NCBI GenBank assembly: GCA_041663145.1
Contig: JBAZRG010000002.1
Span: 1-30,617, forward strand
Direction: 5' to 3'
From: Minisyncoccota bacterium
Lineage (GTDB): Bacteria > Patescibacteriota > Minisyncoccia > Phycocordibacterales > PALSA-1337
Length of the DNA: 30,617 nt
Shown here: positions 2,389-25,620 of the stretch, one piece after another
Layout: each line of letters begins with the position of its first letter
How positions within the stretch are numbered: the stretch's first letter is position 1
Made by a program: the position numbers and the translations under genes
Notes under the pieces: model-generated
Told to the model about the DNA's origin: nothing
Seen by the model: only the letters and a program-made list of their open reading frames with translations
The model's database searches: none

Positions 2389-3876
2389 TTATGAAACGTG
2401 GTGCTTTTCCCTTATGATTTTTAGCTCCTTTTCCTCTTCCTCCAATTTCTTTTCTTTACCACTTTCTGCAAGTTTCTTTAATTCTGCTTCCGGCAGAGCA
2501 ATTAACTCCAATGTTCGTTTGTAAAGATTTTCAACCGTATTTAATTTAGGATCTTCTAGGACTTCTTCAAGGAGAGCATTTAAAACCATACCAATTACTG
2601 GACCAGCCGGTATATTAGCGATTTCCATGATTTTCTTTCCATCAATCTTCAGCATTGTGACTGATATTGGGTCTCTCAAAGCCTCTTCGATCATTGCTTT
2701 GTATTTTCGAAGTCTATATGGGTTTTCCTTAGGTCTTCCTGTTCCTATACGATCGCTAGTGCGCAAATTCATTAGATCCCAGATGTTTTCACGTCCAACA
2801 TTTACGATCATTCTCCTAACTGCGGAAAGTGAAATCTGTTCAGTATCTGAGAAAAACATATGCCAACGTATCATTTTCACCACTTTTTCGATGATTACAC
2901 GTGAAAACTTCATTCTTTCAAGTATTTTCCGTGTTTCACGTGAACCAACTACTTCATGGCCGTAAAACGTCGGTTGATTTGTTTCATGTGAAAAACCTTT
3001 CGTATTTGGCTTGCCAATATCGTGAAATAGAGCCGCTAAACGTAGTTCTAGGGGGAAATTCTTGTCTGCGGAGTGTTGCACAGACTTGAGTAAATGCGTC
3101 CAAACGTCGTATGCATGTGCTTGAGGTTGTTTTACACCTATTCCAGATTCAAGTTCAGGTACAATATGCACCAGTAAACCAGATGATTGAAGAAGTTTTA
3201 TGCCCTCTTCAGGACTTGGAGACATTATAATCTTGGTGAATTCATCACGTACTCTCTCCATTGATACGTGTTTAATATTTGAGTTCAATGTTTTTATTGC
3301 ATCAAATGTTTCGGTGTTACATGTGAAACCTAGTTCCACTGTCAATCTGATTGCGCGCATCATCCTCAGCGCGTCCTCTGTGAACCTTAGAGATGCTTCA
3401 CCAACGGTCCTGATAGTTTTGTCCTTTATGTCAGAAAAACCGTCGTATAAGTCAATTGTGTCCTTTATAGCACCATCGGACAGACTGATAGCCATGGCGT
3501 TTATAGTAAAGTCTCGTCTTTTTAGATCGTCTTCGATTTTTTCACTAAATTTTACTTGATCTGGGTGTCTATAGTCAGAATAGCTAGATTCTGAGCGGTA
3601 TGGTGTGACTTCTACACTTTTTAGAGTCGGATCAGTCACCATTTCGTTAATAACAGCTACAGTTCCAAAGGTATTTTCATAGACGGTTTTTGGAAAAAGT
3701 GCCTGAATCTTCTCTGGAGTTGCATTTGTTGTAATATCCCAATCTTTTGGAATACGTCCAAGGAATATATCTCGAACACAACCTCCAACCAGAAATGCTT
3801 GAAAACCAGCATTTTCGAGTTTTTCGATAATGTTGACGATTTCTTGTGGAATGACGTTATTTTCGGCGATTTTCAT
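2389..3876 (-). CDS. cca: CCA-adding tRNA nucleotidyltransferase / poly(A) polymerase family with C-terminal HD domain
   Basis: 495 aa. Pol-beta nucleotidyltransferase motif (LVGGCVRDIFLG..DWDITT). HD domain (LFHDIGK). Confidence 0.85.
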   Translation of the reverse strand: MKIAENNVIPQEIVNIIEKLENAGFQAFLVGGCVRDIFLGRIPKDWDITTNATPEKIQALFPKTVYENTFGTVAVINEMVTDPTLKSVEVTPYRSESSYSDYRHPDQVKFSEKIEDDLKRRDFTINAMAISLSDGAIKDTIDLYDGFSDIKDKTIRTVGEASLRFTEDALRMMRAIRLTVELGFTCNTETFDAIKTLNSNIKHVSMERVRDEFTKIIMSPSPEEGIKLLQSSGLLVHIVPELESGIGVKQPQAHAYDVWTHLLKSVQHSADKNFPLELRLAALFHDIGKPNTKGFSHETNQPTFYGHEVVGSRETRKILERMKFSRVIIEKVVKMIRWHMFFSDTEQISLSAVRRMIVNVGRENIWDLMNLRTSDRIGTGRPKENPYRLRKYKAMIEEALRDPISVTMLKIDGKKIMEIANIPAGPVIGMVLNALLEEVLEDPKLNTVENLYKRTLELIALPEAELKKLAESGKEKKLEEEEKELKIIREKHHVS

Positions 3877-3947: not shown

Positions 3948-4019
3948 GCGCCCGTGGTGAAATGGATATCACAACGGTCTTCGGAACCGTTATTGGGGGT
4001 TCGAGTCCCTCCGGGCGCA
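3948..4019 (+). tRNA. tRNA-Arg (anticodon TCG), no encoded CCA
   Basis: Cloverleaf folded by hand. Acceptor GCGCCCG/CGGGCGC. Anticodon stem ACGGT/ACCGT with loop CTTCGGA. T-loop TTCGAGT. Discriminator A. Confidence 0.7.
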
Positions 4020-4071
4020 CTACTTCGCTCTTCACTCGCTAAGCTCGTTCAGAGCTACGTAGTGCGAGCAC
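4020..4071 (+). repeat. Conserved tRNA-trailer hairpin element, copy 1 (CACTACTTCGC...CTACGTAGTGCGAGCAC)
   Basis: Starts immediately after the tRNA-Arg discriminator base. Outer arms CACTAC/GTAGTG. Inner stem GCTCT/AGAGC. Shares its 5' and 3' flanks with copies at 5033 and 6440. Confidence 0.6.
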
Positions 4072-4215
4072 AAAAATTAGAAATATCTTTAGTTTTGCAT
4101 TCCAGAGCGAAACACTCAGGATTTGAGAGACAAAATGATGCCAATTTTGCATCATATTTTTCACGTGAAAATTACCATTGAAAAGCGAAGTGTTGATAGT
4201 GTATAATATAGATAC

Positions 4216-4887
4216 ATGAGAAAAGATAGAGAACAAGCCAATATTATGAGAAAGTCTGGAATGAGCTATTCCGAGATCAAATCTCGACTCGGTGTTCCAC
4301 TCAGTACTCTGTCTGACTGGTTTCACACCCAGCAATGGTCAAATGATATAGCTATACAGAGTGCTGTTAGAGCAAGACAGTCGGCAGCGATCCGTCTGGT
4401 GGTTCTAAATACAGTCAGGGGAGGACGATTGAAGAAGGCTTACGAAGATGCCAAACAAGATGCTCTGGTTGACTATTCTGAGCTCCGATATCATCCATTA
4501 TTTATTTCTGGTCTGATGCTTTATTGGGCTCATGGTGACAAGACCGCGAAGAGCCGAATCTCTTTTTCTAGTATGGATCCGAGCGTAATCAAGATTTTTC
4601 GAAACTTTTTGGTGAATATATGTGGTATTCAGAATATGCGAGTCCAGATACTATTGAAATCAAATTTTGATCAGGAAACTGAAATAATGGAGTTTTGGAA
4701 GCAAAAATGTGGCTTCGTTGATGATAATTTTCTAAAAAGCATACGAATTATGAATAATAAACCAATAAATAAGCCATATTTTGGTGTTTGCAATATCATT
4801 TTGAATAGTGCATACTTGAAAAATAAAATTTTACGATGGATTCAATTGATTTCTGAAGACATTGTGAATGAAAAGTATGTTGATTGA
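4216..4887 (+). CDS. Hypothetical protein with N-terminal helix-turn-helix (resolvase/transposase-like HTH); function unknown
   Basis: 223 aa. MSYSEIKSRLGVPLSTLSDWF looks like an HTH. There is a weak LAGLIDADG-like stretch (GLMLYWAHGDK) that I cannot confirm. The gene sits between two tRNA genes. Confidence 0.45.
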   Translation: MRKDREQANIMRKSGMSYSEIKSRLGVPLSTLSDWFHTQQWSNDIAIQSAVRARQSAAIRLVVLNTVRGGRLKKAYEDAKQDALVDYSELRYHPLFISGLMLYWAHGDKTAKSRISFSSMDPSVIKIFRNFLVNICGIQNMRVQILLKSNFDQETEIMEFWKQKCGFVDDNFLKSIRIMNNKPINKPYFGVCNIILNSAYLKNKILRWIQLISEDIVNEKYVD

Positions 4888-4902
4888 AATATATAGTTAT
4901 AT

Positions 4903-4940
4903 GCGAGTATAGTTTAGGGGTTTATCATATCGGAGCAGAA
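4903..4940 (+). pseudogene. Partial duplicate of the 5' half of tRNA-Gly(GCC), a tRNA fragment
   Basis: GCGAGTATAGTTTAGGGGT...ATATCGG compared with the GCGGGTATAGTTTAGTGGTAGAACATATCG of the intact tRNA that begins about 60 nt downstream. Confidence 0.4.
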
Positions 4941-4961
4941 ATTGATTGAAAAGTTAATATT

Positions 4962-5032
4962 GCGGGTATAGTTTAGTGGTAGAACATATCGTTGCCAACG
5001 ATAAAATGGGAGTCCGATTCTCCCTACCCGCA
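4962..5032 (+). tRNA. tRNA-Gly (anticodon GCC)
   Basis: Acceptor GCGGGTA/TACCCGC. Anticodon stem TATCG/CGATA with loop TTGCCAA. T-stem GGGAG/CTCCC. Confidence 0.8.
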
Positions 5033-5074
5033 CTACTTCGCTCTCACTGCGTTCGAGCTACGTAGTGCGAGCAC
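5033..5074 (+). repeat. Conserved tRNA-trailer hairpin element, copy 2
   Basis: CACTACTTCGCTCTCACTGCGTTCGAGCTACGTAGTGCGAGCAC. Flanks are identical to copy 1. The inner stem (GCTC/GAGC) differs in sequence but remains complementary. Confidence 0.6.
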
Positions 5075-5261
5075 TAGAGTCAATTTAGTAGGCAATATTG
5101 CCATATTTGTATTGCACATTGAAGGGAATTGCGTTGAGATCACTCAATGAATGGGGGATAAAGAGTGTCCGAGATAATATGGCTAAGAATCGTGAAGTTA
5201 TTAGACAAACTGGGGATAAGTCTGTGAATTAGGTTTATAAGAGACAAAAATAATGGCTTAG

Positions 5262-5660
5262 ATGCGTAAAACCATGTCTGATTTGCATACCAGAGCAAAA
5301 GGCGTAATTGGTGAAGATGTAGCTTGTAAATACTTAATAGGTAAGGGTTTTAAGCTTGAAAAGAGAAATTATCAAAAAGCTTGGGGAGAGATAGATATAA
5401 TAGCGTTAAAGGACAATACGATTCATTTCTTTGAAGTTAAGAGCGTTACAGCTGATTTTTCGGCTTATAATAACAATCATAGACCTGAAGAAAATGTCCA
5501 TAATCTAAAAGTGAGTCATATTCGGAGAATGGTAAAAACCTATTTAGAAGAATCAAAAAGGGGAATGGAAGCTGATTTTCAATTTCATGTTCTTTGTGTT
5601 TATATGGACATGAACAAAAGGGTAGCCAGGATCCGTCTCTTGGAAAATCTCATCATTTGA
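5262..5660 (+). CDS. yraN: YraN/UPF0102-family endonuclease-like protein
   Basis: 132 aa. GEDVACKYLIGKGFKLEKRN..GEIDIIAL....FFEVKS matches the UPF0102 signature. Confidence 0.75.
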   Translation: MRKTMSDLHTRAKGVIGEDVACKYLIGKGFKLEKRNYQKAWGEIDIIALKDNTIHFFEVKSVTADFSAYNNNHRPEENVHNLKVSHIRRMVKTYLEESKRGMEADFQFHVLCVYMDMNKRVARIRLLENLII

Positions 5661-5728
5661 AGTATTGTGGTCCAATATATTTGAATAATGTGAACTTTTC
5701 AATATTTATGATACGATAGGCAAACATT

Positions 5729-5801
5729 CGGAGCGTGGTGTAACGGCTAACATGCCTCTTTTGGGAAGAGGTGACTCCGGGTTCGAATCCCGGCGCTCCG
5801 A
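5729..5801 (+). tRNA. tRNA-Pro (anticodon TGG)
   Basis: Acceptor CGGAGCG/CGCTCCG with C1-G72, as expected for bacterial tRNA-Pro. Anticodon stem CCTCT/AGAGG with loop TTTGGGA. T-arm CCGGG-TTCGAAT-CCCGG. Discriminator A. It has no trailer hairpin, unlike the other three tRNAs. Confidence 0.8.
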
Positions 5802-5854
5802 CAGGGAATAGTAGCGGTTGTGTGATTGTAGTAAATAATAAGTTATAAAGATTT

Positions 5855-6289
5855 ATGATCAAAAAAATAGTCGATTTCTTTGATAAATTTGAAGACAAAA
5901 TACGAGGTGGTCTCAGTCGCTTTCCGATTCTTTATACTCTGGTTGGTGGTATTGCAATAGTTTTATTTTGGCGTGGTGTTTGGCATACGGCGGATATTCT
6001 GCAGTCCAAGGGAGGTTGGTTGGGTTGGCTCTTCTATGAGCCTACGAATCTTGTGATCGTTGTGCTTATCCTGCTCGCGACTGGTCTGTTTGTCTCATAC
6101 TTCATTGGCGACACTATCCTTATCAGTGGGATGAAGGGTGAAAAGAAATTGGCAGAAAAGACTGAGAGGGAAGTGAAAGAAGAGGAGCAGAAGATAAAAG
6201 AACTACGTGAGACTATTGTAGCTATGAAAAAAGAAGTGGATGAGATCAAAGATATTGTGACAGAGAAGAAAGATGATCAGCAACAGTAA
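5855..6289 (+). CDS. Hypothetical membrane protein (two TM helices plus charged coiled-coil tail)
   Basis: 144 aa. Hydrophobic segments (ILYTLVGGIAIVLFW, LVIVVLILLATGLFVSYFI) are followed by a KE-rich C-terminus. Confidence 0.5.
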   Translation: MIKKIVDFFDKFEDKIRGGLSRFPILYTLVGGIAIVLFWRGVWHTADILQSKGGWLGWLFYEPTNLVIVVLILLATGLFVSYFIGDTILISGMKGEKKLAEKTEREVKEEEQKIKELRETIVAMKKEVDEIKDIVTEKKDDQQQ

Positions 6290-6368
6290 ATTGGAGAAGA
6301 CTAATAGTGAAATTTTACGACTGATTTGCTAGTATGAAAGTCATCTCAGATTATATTGATAATAAATC

Positions 6369-6439
6369 GCGGGATTAGTTAAATGGTATAATAACAGTTT
6401 TCCAAACTGTGGTCGGGAGTTCGATTCTCCCATCCCGCA
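6369..6439 (+). tRNA. tRNA-Gly (anticodon TCC)
   Basis: Acceptor GCGGGAT/ATCCCGC. Anticodon stem ACAGT/ACTGT with loop TTTCCAA. T-arm GGGAG-TTCGATT-CTCCC. Confidence 0.8.
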
Positions 6440-22653: not shown

Positions 22654-22683
22654 TTGACAAGTAGCTATTATGTGCTGTATAAT
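22654..22683 (+). promoter_or_regulatory. Consensus sigma70-type promoter TTGACA-18-TATAAT upstream of the DGR target gene
   Basis: Read directly. It lies about 135 nt upstream of the likely ATG at 22820. Confidence 0.65.
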
Positions 22684-22759: not shown

Positions 22760-23506
22760 GTGGTGAACTGTAGTAACCACACATCAACAAAACAACGTAT
22801 ACGAAAGGTAATAACGATTATGAAATCGATTACACCTGGTCAGATGGAACAGTTTGCTCGTTTTGTGACAGATGCTTCCGGTCCAAGCACGAAGACGGCT
22901 CTTGAGCAGCTTCGCGACGACTGGGAATTCAGTCATGAAGGTCTTCAGCGCGCGCTCGGAAAAGGTAATCAGCTCAAATCCCGCCTTATTCCGCTTCTCA
23001 AGGCCATGATCAAGGAAATGGCGACTAATATCCAAGGATGCGTGAAGCGCATCCTTGATGGAGAAGAGATCGCCATCGCCAAAACGAGCGGAAAGGAAAA
23101 TCTCGCCCATGCCAAGGACGTTTTCACCGGTTGGGTTGATCCCGACTTCGTGAATTACGGCTGTGATGTGGAAGGGGAGCCTACCGCTCCGACACCTGTA
23201 GAGGTGTTCGAGATGGTGGAAAACGGCGACTTCGCGCGGATATTCGGTGGTTTCAATGTCAGCCTCGATCAGCTGCGTCTTTCACAGCACCAGATCAAGG
23301 CTTTCGCAAGGGATCACCGTGATAAGCTCCGCACGGAAGGATACGGGACCTTCTTCCTGTTCAAGGTTGGCGAAGAGTTCTTCGTTGCGTACGTGCACTT
23401 CTACGGCGGCGGGCGGCTCCGGGTCTACGTGCACCGCTTCTCGGACGTCAACGTCTGGGGCGCCGAGCGCCGTCATCGCGTCGTGCTCCCGAAACTGAAC
23501 CAGTAG
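22760..23506 (+). CDS. DGR variable (target) protein; VR forms the C-terminal 40 codons. The likely true start is the ATG at 22820 (228 aa).
   Basis: The C-terminus ...YVHFYGGGRLRVYVHRFSDVNVWGAERRHRVVLPKLNQ is encoded by the VR. The gene is GC-rich relative to the backbone. No signal peptide. I do not recognise the fold from the sequence. Confidence 0.75.
   Translation: MVNCSNHTSTKQRIRKVITIMKSITPGQMEQFARFVTDASGPSTKTALEQLRDDWEFSHEGLQRALGKGNQLKSRLIPLLKAMIKEMATNIQGCVKRILDGEEIAIAKTSGKENLAHAKDVFTGWVDPDFVNYGCDVEGEPTAPTPVEVFEMVENGDFARIFGGFNVSLDQLRLSQHQIKAFARDHRDKLRTEGYGTFFLFKVGEEFFVAYVHFYGGGRLRVYVHRFSDVNVWGAERRHRVVLPKLNQ
23378..23497 (+). repeat. DGR variable repeat (VR)
   Basis: 120 nt aligned with the TR at 23864-23983. 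There are 19 mismatches, and at every one the TR base is A (VR has C, G or T). All other positions are identical. AAC (Asn) codons in the TR correspond to Tyr, His, Asp, Gly and Arg codons in the VR. Confidence 0.9.
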
Positions 23507-23519
23507 GTTCACCTACTGG
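23500..23519 (+). promoter_or_regulatory. VR-proximal hairpin (CCAGTAGG-TTCA-CCTACTGG) overlapping the target stop codon
   Basis: 8-bp perfect stem with a 4-nt loop immediately 3' of the VR. Comparable to the hairpin/cruciform elements that enhance DGR retrohoming. Confidence 0.6.
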
Positions 23520-23610
23520 GTGGCACTTGCAAATTAGCCTTGAGCCTTTGGCTCTCAGTCCCTCTGATCCTTGTCAAAATTTATTTTGGCAAATCAGGGG
23601 GATTTTTTGA

Positions 23611-23639
23611 TTGAGCACAATCACCTACTGGGTTATACT
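23611..23639 (+). promoter_or_regulatory. Candidate promoter TTGAGC-17-TATACT for the TR-containing transcript
   Basis: Read directly. It is about 225 nt upstream of the TR. The -35 region is embedded in the 23-mer shared with 19177-19199. Confidence 0.45.
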
Positions 23640-23863
23640 GGAATGGCACGCATGAACGTACGGTGGCTATGGCTCCTGTGCCACGCTTGTGAAGAAATAC
23701 GTTCGGGAGTTCTGCTGGATATGTCTTGCAGAAGAGTGGATGTATTATTATCTAAACAAAAAATAATCAGTTGGTGTAGCGAACTGGAGGACTTCAAGGT
23801 CCCGAATACTATTCAATTTGTCCTGATTGGGCGGGTGGTGTACTGGATGGTCCGCTACACATT

Positions 23864-23983
23864 ATCTTCGTTGCGAACGTGAACTTCAACGACGACGGGC
23901 AGCTCAAGGTCAACGTGAACCGCTTCTCGAACGACAACGTCTGGAACGCCGAGAACCGTCATCGCATCGTGATCCCGAAACTG
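23864..23983 (+). repeat. DGR template repeat (TR)
   Basis: It carries adenines at all 19 VR-variable positions. It is translatable in the VR frame as NVNFNDDGQLKVNVNRFSNDNVWNAENRHRIVIPKL (AAC-rich). Homology to the VR ends sharply after CCGAAACTG. Confidence 0.9.
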
Positions 23984-23998
23984 CAATTTCTCTCATCA

Positions 23999-24367
23999 TT
24001 ATTTGGTGAGAGTTTTGTTGAGTGTCGATTTAGCAGACGGACTTTGAAGGCCTTTGCGCCATCCACCAAGCATCCGTCCTATTTCTTCGAGCTTTTCCGA
24101 GAGTTCTGTATATTTGTCAGTCGGCATGAGCTTGCTCTCCCATGCTAGTTGATAAAAGAATTTAAGAGTATCTACCTTCGTTATTGTTCGACCAAGCATT
24201 ACCGTTTTGGTTTCTGGTGGTAGATATATGCAAGAAAAACTAAATTCCAAAGTATCTAAGAATAAATCCTCGATCTTTTGCCCGATGCCGAGTCGTTCGA
24301 CCCTCGGAAAGTTCCTATGAATAGTTAACCAAAACTGATATGCTTCTTTTTCCTTTAAAATTACCAC
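23999..24367 (-). CDS. avd: Accessory variability determinant (Avd)-like four-helix-bundle protein
   Basis: 122 aa. C-terminal ...MPTDKYTELSEKLEEIGRMLGGWRKGL resembles the Avd and 23S-rRNA-IVS protein family pattern (bAvd ...MTPHQVETAQVLIAEVGRILGSWIA). GTG start with no obvious SD. It is encoded opposite to the TR and RT. Confidence 0.65.
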   Translation of the reverse strand: MVILKEKEAYQFWLTIHRNFPRVERLGIGQKIEDLFLDTLEFSFSCIYLPPETKTVMLGRTITKVDTLKFFYQLAWESKLMPTDKYTELSEKLEEIGRMLGGWRKGLQSPSAKSTLNKTLTK

Positions 24368-24378
24368 TGGAGAATTGC

Positions 24379-24388
24379 GGGGGGGGGG
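24379..24388. repeat. G10 homopolymer in the 41-bp divergent avd/RT intergenic region
   Basis: Ten consecutive G on the + strand (equal to C10 on the strand encoding avd), 11 nt upstream of the avd start codon and 21 nt upstream of the likely RT ATG at 24409. Confidence 0.8.
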
Positions 24389-24408
24389 TCGTTATAGTCA
24401 TTTTATTT

Positions 24409-25404
24409 ATGAAAAATAATGGGGTTTCGTACAACCATATCATATCTCTTAAAAATATCCACGAAGCGTGGCGCGAATTTGTCTCGGGCAAAAAATACAA
24501 AAAAGATGTCGCTGAATTTCTGCTCAGACTTTCGGAGAATACATATAAACTCCACACTGATCTGAAAAATAAAATATATGTTCATGGACCGTACGAAGCG
24601 TTTGCTGTTAATGATCCAAAACCGCGCAGCATCCATAAAGCAAGCGTGCGGGACCGCTTACTCCACCACGCCCTCTATCGACAACTCTACCCGTACTTTG
24701 ATCAGAAGTTTATTCATGATTCCTATTCTTGCCGTGATTTTAAGGGAACACATCGGGCATTGGACCGTTTTATGCAATTTGCCCGCAAGGTTTCGAAGAG
24801 CAATAAACGCACCTGCTGGGTGTTGAAATGTGACATACGCAAATTCTTTGCTTCAGTTGACCATTCAGTCCTCATGGCAATACTTAAAAAGCATGTCTCT
24901 GATTCTGATATTATCCGCCTTGTTGGTGGGGTAGTGGAGAGTTTTAAAAGTACTGGTCCAGGAAAGGGATTGCCGCTCGGTAATCTCACGTCACAACTCC
25001 TTGTAAATGTTTATATGAATGAGTTTGACCAATATGTAAAGCATGTCCTCAAACAGGAGTTCTATATCCGTTACGCTGATGATTTTGTGATTATGCATCA
25101 CGATCGCAAGGCTTTGCTCGAGGTATTGCCGAAGATTGAAACCTTTCTTGAATCAATTCTTAAACTACAGCTTCATCCTGATAAGGTTTCTATCGAGACA
25201 GTTTCATCCGGTGTTGATTTTCTTGGTTGGGTGCATTTTCCGACTCATCGTGTACTTAGGACAAAGACAAAGAAGAGAATGTTTACAAGAATTGAAGATT
25301 CACAAGGAAAGGAAGAAGTAGTATGTTCATATCTCGGTATGTTAAAGCATGGGAATTGCAAAAAATTGAAGTGCAGGGTCATGAAATTGACAATCACAAT
25401 CTAA
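24409..25404 (+). CDS. DGR-type reverse transcriptase
   Basis: The ORF track gives 24340, but the homologous N-terminus begins MKNNGVSYNHIISLKNIHEAW at 24409. RT motifs are present: motif 4 GLPLGNLTSQLLVNVYMNEF (the SQ form typical of DGR RTs, versus SP in group II introns) and motif 5 YIRYADDFVI. Only 331 aa, with no maturase or endonuclease domains. Confidence 0.9.
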   Translation: MKNNGVSYNHIISLKNIHEAWREFVSGKKYKKDVAEFLLRLSENTYKLHTDLKNKIYVHGPYEAFAVNDPKPRSIHKASVRDRLLHHALYRQLYPYFDQKFIHDSYSCRDFKGTHRALDRFMQFARKVSKSNKRTCWVLKCDIRKFFASVDHSVLMAILKKHVSDSDIIRLVGGVVESFKSTGPGKGLPLGNLTSQLLVNVYMNEFDQYVKHVLKQEFYIRYADDFVIMHHDRKALLEVLPKIETFLESILKLQLHPDKVSIETVSSGVDFLGWVHFPTHRVLRTKTKKRMFTRIEDSQGKEEVVCSYLGMLKHGNCKKLKCRVMKLTITI

Positions 25405-25413
25405 TTTATCGTA

Positions 25414-25567
25414 GGAGCTTGGTGAATATTGTGTATTTGCTCCTCGCAATGCGATTTGAACCCCGAACAAATTGCCCATATTAGAGTAGCTCCGTCTACT
25501 CTAATATGGTTGCAATTTGGAGTGGGTGACCTTGCGAGGAGCAAATACACAATATTCACCAAGCTCC
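25414..25567. repeat. 154-nt palindromic element: 36-bp perfect inverted-repeat arms plus an inner 14-bp inverted repeat, immediately 3' of the RT
   Basis: GGAGCTTGGTGAATATTGTGTATTTGCTCCTCGCAA ... TTGCGAGGAGCAAATACACAATATTCACCAAGCTCC. The inner repeat is CCATATTAGAGTAG/CTACTCTAATATGG. Confidence 0.7.
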
Positions 25568-25620
25568 TGTAGACTCTATGCACAGTGACTCGCGCTTGAA
25601 TTAGCGATACAATTGACTCA

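Follow-up and report, generated by a model that had tools for sequence, protein, structure and literature searches.

A hypervariable simple-sequence repeat within avd is a candidate phase-variation switch in diversity-generating retroelements of the candidate phyla radiation

We describe a repeat tract inside the avd gene of a diversity-generating retroelement (DGR) that is a candidate switch for the activity of the element. The DGR is complete, has the B3 architecture typical of the candidate phyla radiation (CPR), and lies in a 30,617-nucleotide stretch of DNA from a Minisyncoccota bacterium (contig JBAZRG010000002.1), referred to throughout as the window. Its tract consists of ten cytosines on the avd coding strand (C10; G10 on the forward strand). 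It is coding, conserved in position and hypervariable in length among relatives, where it leaves avd in all three reading frames with the body of the gene intact. We consider it probable that slipped-strand phase variation of Avd takes place at this tract and gates DGR activity. A wider proposal, to which we give even chances, is that CPR-type DGRs have two tiers of variation, with a heritable and reversible repeat gate in avd controlling adenine mutagenesis, together with a self-contained RNA of ~390 nt whose structured part is 5' and thus permuted relative to the Bordetella phage element. Under this proposal, the gate would be a C-run in most lineages and would have been swapped independently for CT, CA or AG repeats in others.

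In the proposed mechanism, translation of avd would begin at the minus-strand ATG at 24401, with the C-run at codons 5-8, and replication slippage would change the length of the run. A run of 9 or 12 would place the ATG in frame with the avd body (ON), while C10 would end translation early, so that the consensus state of this genome would be Avd-OFF. The tract would thereby act as a stochastic, heritable and reversible switch, with adenine mutagenesis of the target gene turned on in a subpopulation and then off again. In the Bordetella phage, the complex of reverse transcriptase (RT) and Avd together with the DGR RNA is necessary and sufficient for cDNA synthesis (Handa et al., as cited in passages of PMC6602519), so loss of Avd should silence mutagenesis while leaving the template repeat (TR), the variable repeat (VR) and RT untouched. 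Switching would presumably be reversible within a population, the out-of-frame state would presumably yield no functional Avd, and Avd would, by analogy with the phage, be required in this clade.

The start of avd, as judged from sequence, is the ATG at 24401-24399 and the tract is within the coding sequence. The original prediction had avd begin at a GTG (24367) and placed the tract in a divergent intergenic gap of 41 bp; both assignments need revision. The frame opened by the ATG begins MTITTPPP and runs through the tract. With C10 it reads MTITTPPPQFSSGNFKGKRSISVLVNYS* and stops after 28 aa. Set to C9 in silico, it reads MTITTPPRNSPVVILKEKEAYQ... and continues into a 133-aa Avd, and C12 gives 134 aa; C8, C10 and C11 are out of frame. 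Homologs share this N-terminal extension in frame with the Avd body (MTIKSPPQRSPVVILK, MTITPPPPRSSPVVILK, MTTPPRSSPVIILK and, for example, MTIKSPPQRSPVVILKQKEAYQ), and two close relatives from Logan assemblies, P0127 (MTITPPPPRSSPVVILK..., 134 aa) and P0124 (MTTPPRSSPVIILK..., 131 aa), were called in frame. It is the frame from the ATG together with the in-frame extension of homologs that places the avd and RT start codons 7 nt apart and makes the tract coding. Across loci, the gap between the two start codons has a median of 6.5 nt, and the repeat begins a median of 16 nt past the avd ATG.

The tract could instead be non-coding if avd were translated from the GTG, in which case the repeat would sit in a 5' untranslated region or a shared divergent promoter and tune transcription or translation of avd and/or RT, as promoter-spacer repeats do in Neisseria or Bordetella. 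The 122-aa protein starting at this GTG is the one annotated by NCBI and covers positions 4-104 of the 104 in the Avd profile. A TATAGT hexamer is also present between the tract and the RT ATG (24393-24398), and a GTG or TTG occurs near the start of the body in about half of the loci. However, repeat-free relatives retain an in-frame ATG about 8 codons upstream (19 of 22), and in relatives that are in frame the sequence across the tract codes for a conserved N-terminal peptide. The GTG is itself a conserved Val codon whose frequency is the same in repeat-free loci and in loci in or out of frame; half of the out-of-frame loci are without any start-like codon. The distance from repeat to RT start (4-56 nt) and the length of the repeat (7-26 nt) are too variable for a fixed promoter spacer. 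For this reason the tract was rejected as an RT promoter spacer, and the earlier suggestion that it might toggle RT finds no support. Altogether we regard a non-coding tract as improbable. Gene callers split or shorten out-of-frame avd genes, yielding either C-terminal fragments of 66 aa (from an internal Met, with the start lost) or the 122-aa GTG product. Public annotations of the Avd family thus systematically misplace the N-terminus, and avd is misannotated in roughly two thirds of these elements.

Relatives of the window were fetched as 80 loci from species-representative genomes and 64 loci from metagenomes, with an Avd alignment or Avd protein, and 135 loci were analysable for repeat and frame (113 repeat-bearing, 22 repeat-free). 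Exact-protein look-ups with the window's 122-aa Avd and 331-aa RT gave no match, and the relatives were reached via members of the P0001 cluster. Further close relatives of the window are contigs from Logan assemblies. All named sources of the fetched loci are Patescibacteria/CPR metagenome-assembled genomes (MAGs), the rest being unclassified bins, and the closest matches belong to MAGs of Paceibacterota and other Patescibacteria. A run of C7-C14 occupies the tract position on the avd strand in 105 of the 135 loci (C7 in 8, C8 in 12, C9 in 32, C10 in 33, C11 in 12, C12 in 6, C13 in 1 and C14 in 1). Eight loci have a dinucleotide repeat there and 22 have no repeat. The dinucleotide repeats are (CT)11 in L081, which is the window's closest metagenome relative (88% aa identity), (CT)7, (CT)8, (AG)13 in L056, (CA)10 in L076, (AC)5, (CA)4 and a marginal (GT)4 in L124. 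Because unrelated repeats replace the C-run, repetitiveness itself appears to be selected, rather than proline codons or a G-rich motif on the opposite strand. The site is also where such runs concentrate. Among 103 G/C runs of at least 8 in 768 kb of fetched locus DNA, 97 are at the avd site and 2 are in technically excluded loci, and in the 30.6-kb window the tract is the sole run of this kind. The outgroup of 30 phage loci with distant Avd homologs has the canonical order of co-oriented avd then RT, and no such G/C run was found in these 30 DGRs.

Another explanation is that the G-run serves as a cis element on the RT strand, in the DGR RNA or RT leader or as a binding or priming site for RT-Avd, and that its overlap with avd is incidental. 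The run is indeed always G on the RT/TR strand (105/105), and its median distance from the RT start, upstream, is 22 nt. However, CT, CA and AG repeats substitute for it in close relatives, 22 functional-looking relatives are without the tract, and a terminator-like hairpin ~360 nt upstream appears to mark the end of the TR RNA. A cis element also leaves the broken avd frame in two thirds of loci unexplained, and we consider it very unlikely. Separately, L023, which is repeat-free in avd, has a G11 run at 3400-3410 inside the RT open reading frame (ORF) that splits the frame at AKGGGG|LKGLPIGN. This is one of the 4 G/C runs of at least 8 outside the avd site in the 768 kb, and it may be an alternative seat of the same type of switch or a chance or assembly event.

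The length of the tract differs between sequences that are otherwise identical. L086 and L088 come from two filter fractions of a single groundwater well, and over 2364 nt their one difference is C10 versus C11. L109 and L110 are identical over 3327 nt save C14 versus C12. L095 and L135 differ by one mismatch and by C12 versus C11. Two more groups in which the tract flanks are identical or nearly so have C11, C11, C8, C10 and C9, and C7, C8, C8 and C9, respectively. In the window and its relatives (82-100% nucleotide identity to it), the window and L145 are OFF at C10, L146 is ON at C11, L147 is ON at C9, and the remainder are OFF, at C11 (L148), C7 (L149), C9 (L001) and (CT)11 (L081). That the tract is an assembly or sequencing artefact, or that avd is a decaying pseudogene in this genome, is scarcely credible. 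Homopolymers do attract errors, and this assembly has avd in a broken frame, but the same tract is present in 105 independent assemblies from many studies, and the artefact raised as a possibility in the original prediction is excluded by this recurrence. A Logan contig that is 100% identical to the window over 2944 nt likewise has 10, and since that assembly is independent, the tract length is not assembler-specific. The body of avd is intact in 74 of 76 out-of-frame loci, and TR, VR and RT are intact in the window.

The consequences of tract length for the avd frame were consistent with a contingency repeat. An in-frame ATG upstream of the repeat was found in 37 of 113 repeat loci, which is one third (binomial p = 1.0), compared with the 19 of 22 repeat-free loci mentioned above (Fisher p = 5e-6). 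The in-frame fraction varied with run length modulo 3 (19/38, 12/42 and 4/25; p = 0.014). In the out-of-frame loci, the intact body ORFs have a median of 115 aa, and internal start codons were not enriched (38/76 versus 15/37 in frame; p = 0.42). The intact body and the lack of such enrichment argue that avd is maintained even though its consensus frame is usually broken. As is characteristic of contingency genes, a mono- or dinucleotide repeat of mutable length (at least 7 for G/C) lies in the 5' part of the ORF, its length is polymorphic among identical or near-identical sequences, and changes in length shift the frame in and out while the rest of the gene stays intact. The earlier idea that the homopolymer could toggle avd by slippage is thus strongly supported by recurrence, length variation and frames.

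Recoding offers a different account of the same frames. RNA polymerase slippage or ribosomal frameshifting (at CCC-C/poly-proline) would give some in-frame Avd at any length, making the tract a constitutive attenuator that holds Avd at a low level instead of a switch. Runs of at least 9 identical bases are generally known as classic slippage sites, all three frames are tolerated in nature, and a covarying hairpin of 7-10 bp follows the tract immediately in about 30 loci of one subclade, reminiscent of frameshift stimulators. On the other hand, the shift that would be needed lacks a consistent direction (+1 nt in 43 loci, +2 nt in 42), and neither polymerase nor ribosome slips readily on dinucleotide repeats such as the CT, CA and AG repeats in 8 loci. 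Neither the window nor its close relatives have the post-tract hairpin (z = +0.5), and C9 and C12 are the lengths most often paired with an in-frame ATG. We therefore think recoding unlikely as the explanation of the tract, although transcriptional or ribosomal slippage may coexist with switching at the DNA level. The post-tract hairpin is found on the avd strand in L013, L027-L032, L043, L048, L099-L104 and others, where it takes up the first ~25 nt beginning at the first base past the C-run and spans the codons of the Avd N-terminus; its compensatory variants include GAGAAGCAC/GTGCTTCTC, GAGAATTACC/GGTAATTCTC and GAGTACC/GGTACTC. As the window and its close relatives lack it, it was rejected as a core feature.

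A link between frame and mutagenesis was sought in near-identical contigs. Of the 11 differences between L128 and L129, both in frame, 10 fall in the VR, as do 16 of the 25 between L103 and L104, also in frame; the contigs of these pairs are ~99.3-99.7% identical over 3.3 kb. This clustering indicates that the CPR DGRs of these related loci are active in nature. In the five OFF/OFF near-identical pairs, the VR differences numbered 0, 0, 0, 1 and 0. The accumulation of VR differences where avd is ON is suggestive, the comparison being made on very few contig pairs.

Several points weigh against phase variation of Avd. In three pairs one or both alleles are ON (two of these pairs being mixed ON/OFF), and the VR does not differ within any of them. 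An in-frame share of one third is also what would be expected of a tract without frame constraint, for example if slippage in transcription or translation rescued any length. The GTG of the window is in frame after the tract, and a 122-aa Avd covering nearly the whole profile could in principle be made from it. Short-read assemblies are somewhat prone to error at long G/C homopolymers, such that single tract lengths may be off by 1, and the differences in tract length are between assemblies and not within one clone. Furthermore, in the passages cited above, the need for Avd is established for the Bordetella phage DGR alone.

The identification of the minus-strand gene as avd is supported by profile searches. 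The ORF from the GTG matches Pfam bAvd (PF22296) at 43 bits, above the cut-off of 40, and NCBIfam DivGenRetAVD at E = 4.5e-16 with 59 bits, which is below the equivalog cut-off of 80. Homologs of the window Avd number 167 in CPR, with PF22296 on 120/120 among the matches listed, and the 122-aa ORF is identical to an NCBI protein from a Candidatus Paceibacterota MAG. When PDB sequences were searched with the profile of the Avd family, bAvd was not recovered and chance matches alone came back, the CPR Avd being too diverged from bAvd for detection in this way. No plus-strand ORF of the locus matched Avd in the profile search, and two ORFs considered as an alternative plus-strand Avd (23571-23882 and 23879-24148) have no family match. 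The original prediction was thus right that the only Avd-like ORF of the locus is on the minus strand, and its coordinates for TR, RT, this ORF and the G10 run are correct.

Its view of the antisense avd between TR and RT as unusual does not hold for CPR. In the passages of Wu et al. 2018 (Nucleic Acids Research 46:11; PMC5758913) on architecture, B3 is defined by the order TR-(avd)-RT and a reverse-strand avd, and makes up 90% of the CPR set, so the antisense layout of CPR DGRs is already known. In the window, the avd stop codon is 15 nt beyond the end of the TR and the GTG is 41 nt from the RT ATG. Comparison with relatives, which the prediction had proposed, found RT directly upstream of avd on the opposite strand in 130/130 loci with enough flank, and in 98/132 an adenine-biased TR next to the stop codon of avd, in most cases no more than 25 nt away, the VR lying ~440-490 nt further on. 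The window shares with the B3 cassettes of those passages the order and orientation of target gene and VR, TR, reverse-strand avd and RT, as well as the host group. Unlike the window, the same passages of Wu et al. describe no repeat tract in avd, no structured RNA 5' of the TR and no terminator-like hairpin after it, and within them 'frameshift' is mentioned only in a figure legend on TR-VR alignments.

The remaining parts of the DGR agree with this classification (Table 1). VR and TR differ at 18 positions, 18/18 at TR adenines (A to G in 9, to C in 5 and to T in 4). The VR ends 9 nt before the stop codon of its ORF, at the 3' end of a protein-coding target gene, and is followed by an inverted repeat, as in other DGRs. 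In these, judging from the relevant passages of Wu et al. 2018, an inverted repeat follows the initiation of mutagenic homing (IMH) site, and the post-VR hairpin of the window occupies this position and may have the same role. The target protein has no Pfam or NCBIfam match. Upstream of the target-gene ORF by ~75 nt is a 12/12 match to the sigma-70 consensus (TTGACA-18-TATAAT; 22654-22683, plus strand). The RT ORF matches RVT_1 at 1.9e-26, with LGNLTSQ at residue 190 and YADD at residue 222; the (I/L/V)GxxxSQ motif is diagnostic of DGR-type RTs. The RTs of relatives align to the window RT from residues 1-8. Just downstream of the RT stop is a perfect 37-nt inverted repeat with an 82-nt spacer (25413-25568), and the spacer holds a second perfect inverted repeat of 14 nt (25476-25509). 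An exact 13-nt direct repeat, TCACCTACTGGGT, is present at 23509-23521, in the 3' arm of the post-VR hairpin, and at 23621-23633, in the spacer of the TR-RNA promoter; it was dropped as a functional element since it is unconserved in 97 relatives. Elsewhere in the window, 4 tRNA genes are interspersed with short ORFs at 3948-6439 (plus strand). The ORFs around the DGR, judged by eye from their translations, we take to be H+-pyrophosphatase-like, NusA-like and type IV pilus/secretion ATPase-like, and the DGR appears to sit in an ordinary chromosomal context.

Table 1. Positions of the DGR parts and associated elements in the window
Feature	Position	Strand	Remark
DGR target gene, 248-aa ORF	22760..23506	+	VR at 3' end
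Variable repeat (VR)	23379..23497	+	119-nt repeat of TR
8-bp hairpin CCAGTAGG-ttca-CCTACTGG	23500..23519	.	directly after VR
TR-RNA promoter-like site TTGAGC-17-TATACT	23611..23639	+	-10 TATACT at 23634-23639
Structured RNA domain directly 5' of TR	23659..23860	+	7 helices, 52 pairs
Template repeat (TR)	23865..23983	+	119 nt
Post-TR stem-loop CTCTCATCA-ttatt-TGGTGAGAG + TTTT	23990..24016	+	7 nt after TR; encloses avd stop codon
avd body (four-helix-bundle Avd)	23999..24367	-	intact, but severed from start codon in this assembly
avd 5' coding extension: ATG 24401-24399, MTITT, tract, RNSP	24368..24401	-	one base out of frame with body at C10
Simple-sequence repeat G10 (+) = C10 on avd coding strand	24379..24388	.	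candidate slipped-strand frameshift switch
DGR reverse transcriptase, 331 aa	24409..25404	+	ATG at 24409; divergent from avd

The TR RNA looks like a discrete unit of ~390 nt, predicted to run from a promoter through a structured 5' domain and the TR to a terminator-like hairpin. A TATAAT-like hexamer is present at the aligned -10 position in 33 of 36 relatives, and the ~220 nt upstream of the TR (23640-23864) are as conserved as the TR itself. In a sequence-only MAFFT alignment of 46 diverse loci analyzed with RNAalifold, the 5' domain had compensatory change in 43 of 52 pairs, with pairing of 93.3% versus 73.3% in shuffled alignments, 554 versus 183.5 double-change cells, and 40-52% in slid controls. 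The RNA flanking the TR matched no Rfam family at the gathering threshold or at E <= 1. After the TR, the stem-loop of the window has a 9-bp stem followed by TTTTGTTG; in relatives, stems of 7-12 bp were found in 95/98 (mean z of -3.2) and a T-rich tail in 91/98. Its consensus is CTCYC...GRGAG followed by UUUU, with an invariant CU...AG base and a covarying inner stem. Covariation was computed on arm-anchored sequences and gave 97.8% paired, a percentage biased towards structure because the arms were trimmed by the detected hairpin, and 86 double-change cells versus 22.8 shuffled. As a GC-rich hairpin followed directly by a U-tract, it is a predicted intrinsic terminator, and it may be a terminator and/or the counterpart of the Avd-binding stem-loop of phage BPP-1. 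The stem-loop with its T-run, the covarying 5' domain and the promoter point to a discrete TR RNA rather than a TR-RT transcript. The transcript antisense to the whole of avd that the original prediction expected is accordingly doubtful, given the conserved and covarying stem-loop and T-run right after the TR.

Comparison with the BPP-1 DGR (avd-TR-brt) sets the layout of the window in context. In BPP-1, the spacer that carries the priming adenosine is structured and is located 3' of the TR, and Avd binds a stem-loop directly after the TR (bioRxiv 10.1101/2023.10.23.563531). The window resembles BPP-1 in its adenine-specific transfer from TR to VR, its (I/L/V)GxxxSQ RT and its bAvd-family protein, and a stem-loop directly follows its TR at the place of the Avd-binding stem-loop of BPP-1. 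In contrast, avd is co-oriented in BPP-1 and the structured spacer needed for priming, of 140 nt, is 3' of the TR, whereas the window has an antisense avd with a frameshifting repeat and a structured domain 5' of the TR, in a permuted layout. Reconstitution of a CPR DGR would be best attempted with the in-frame 133-aa Avd and the ~390-nt TR RNA unit, and not with the TR-to-RT spacer.

Phasevarions and repeat-mediated inactivation of mismatch repair also place a stochastic switch on a second layer of variation, as proposed here for avd. The effect of those switches extends to the whole genome, through the methylome or the global mutation rate, whereas the avd switch would gate a single 119-nt region. 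To our knowledge, the regulation of DGR mutagenesis is largely unknown, and no dedicated switch has been described. The tract resembles the poly-G/C contingency loci of simple-sequence repeats (SSRs) in Campylobacter jejuni, Neisseria and Haemophilus (PMC4965091, PMC8355987) in that the genome is AT-rich, a G/C run of 7-14 nt is found close to the 5' end of an ORF, and the length of the run is polymorphic between otherwise identical sequences and sets the reading frame. The SSR contingency loci known from host-associated pathogens mostly govern surface structures, restriction-modification enzymes or regulators. Unlike these, the gated gene here encodes a cofactor of targeted mutagenesis in free-living or episymbiotic CPR bacteria, and the switching is predicted from sequence comparison. 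A literature search, outside which fell the main CPR DGR paper, Paul et al. 2017, found no report of an avd homopolymer, SSR, phase variation or frameshift in DGRs, and a self-contained TR RNA with its structured part 5' of the TR was likewise not met with there. The application of SSR phase variation to a DGR cofactor gene across a large clade would thus appear to be new.

The tract and the VR haplotype lie within ~1 kb on the same molecule, so that the idea is testable in existing metagenome reads. Random recoding of a working protein is costly, and for CPR bacteria, the largest natural reservoir of DGRs, a contingency repeat within avd would offer a simple solution. If phase variation of Avd is confirmed, most cells would keep a fixed target protein while a stochastic minority explores variants, with the state being inherited.

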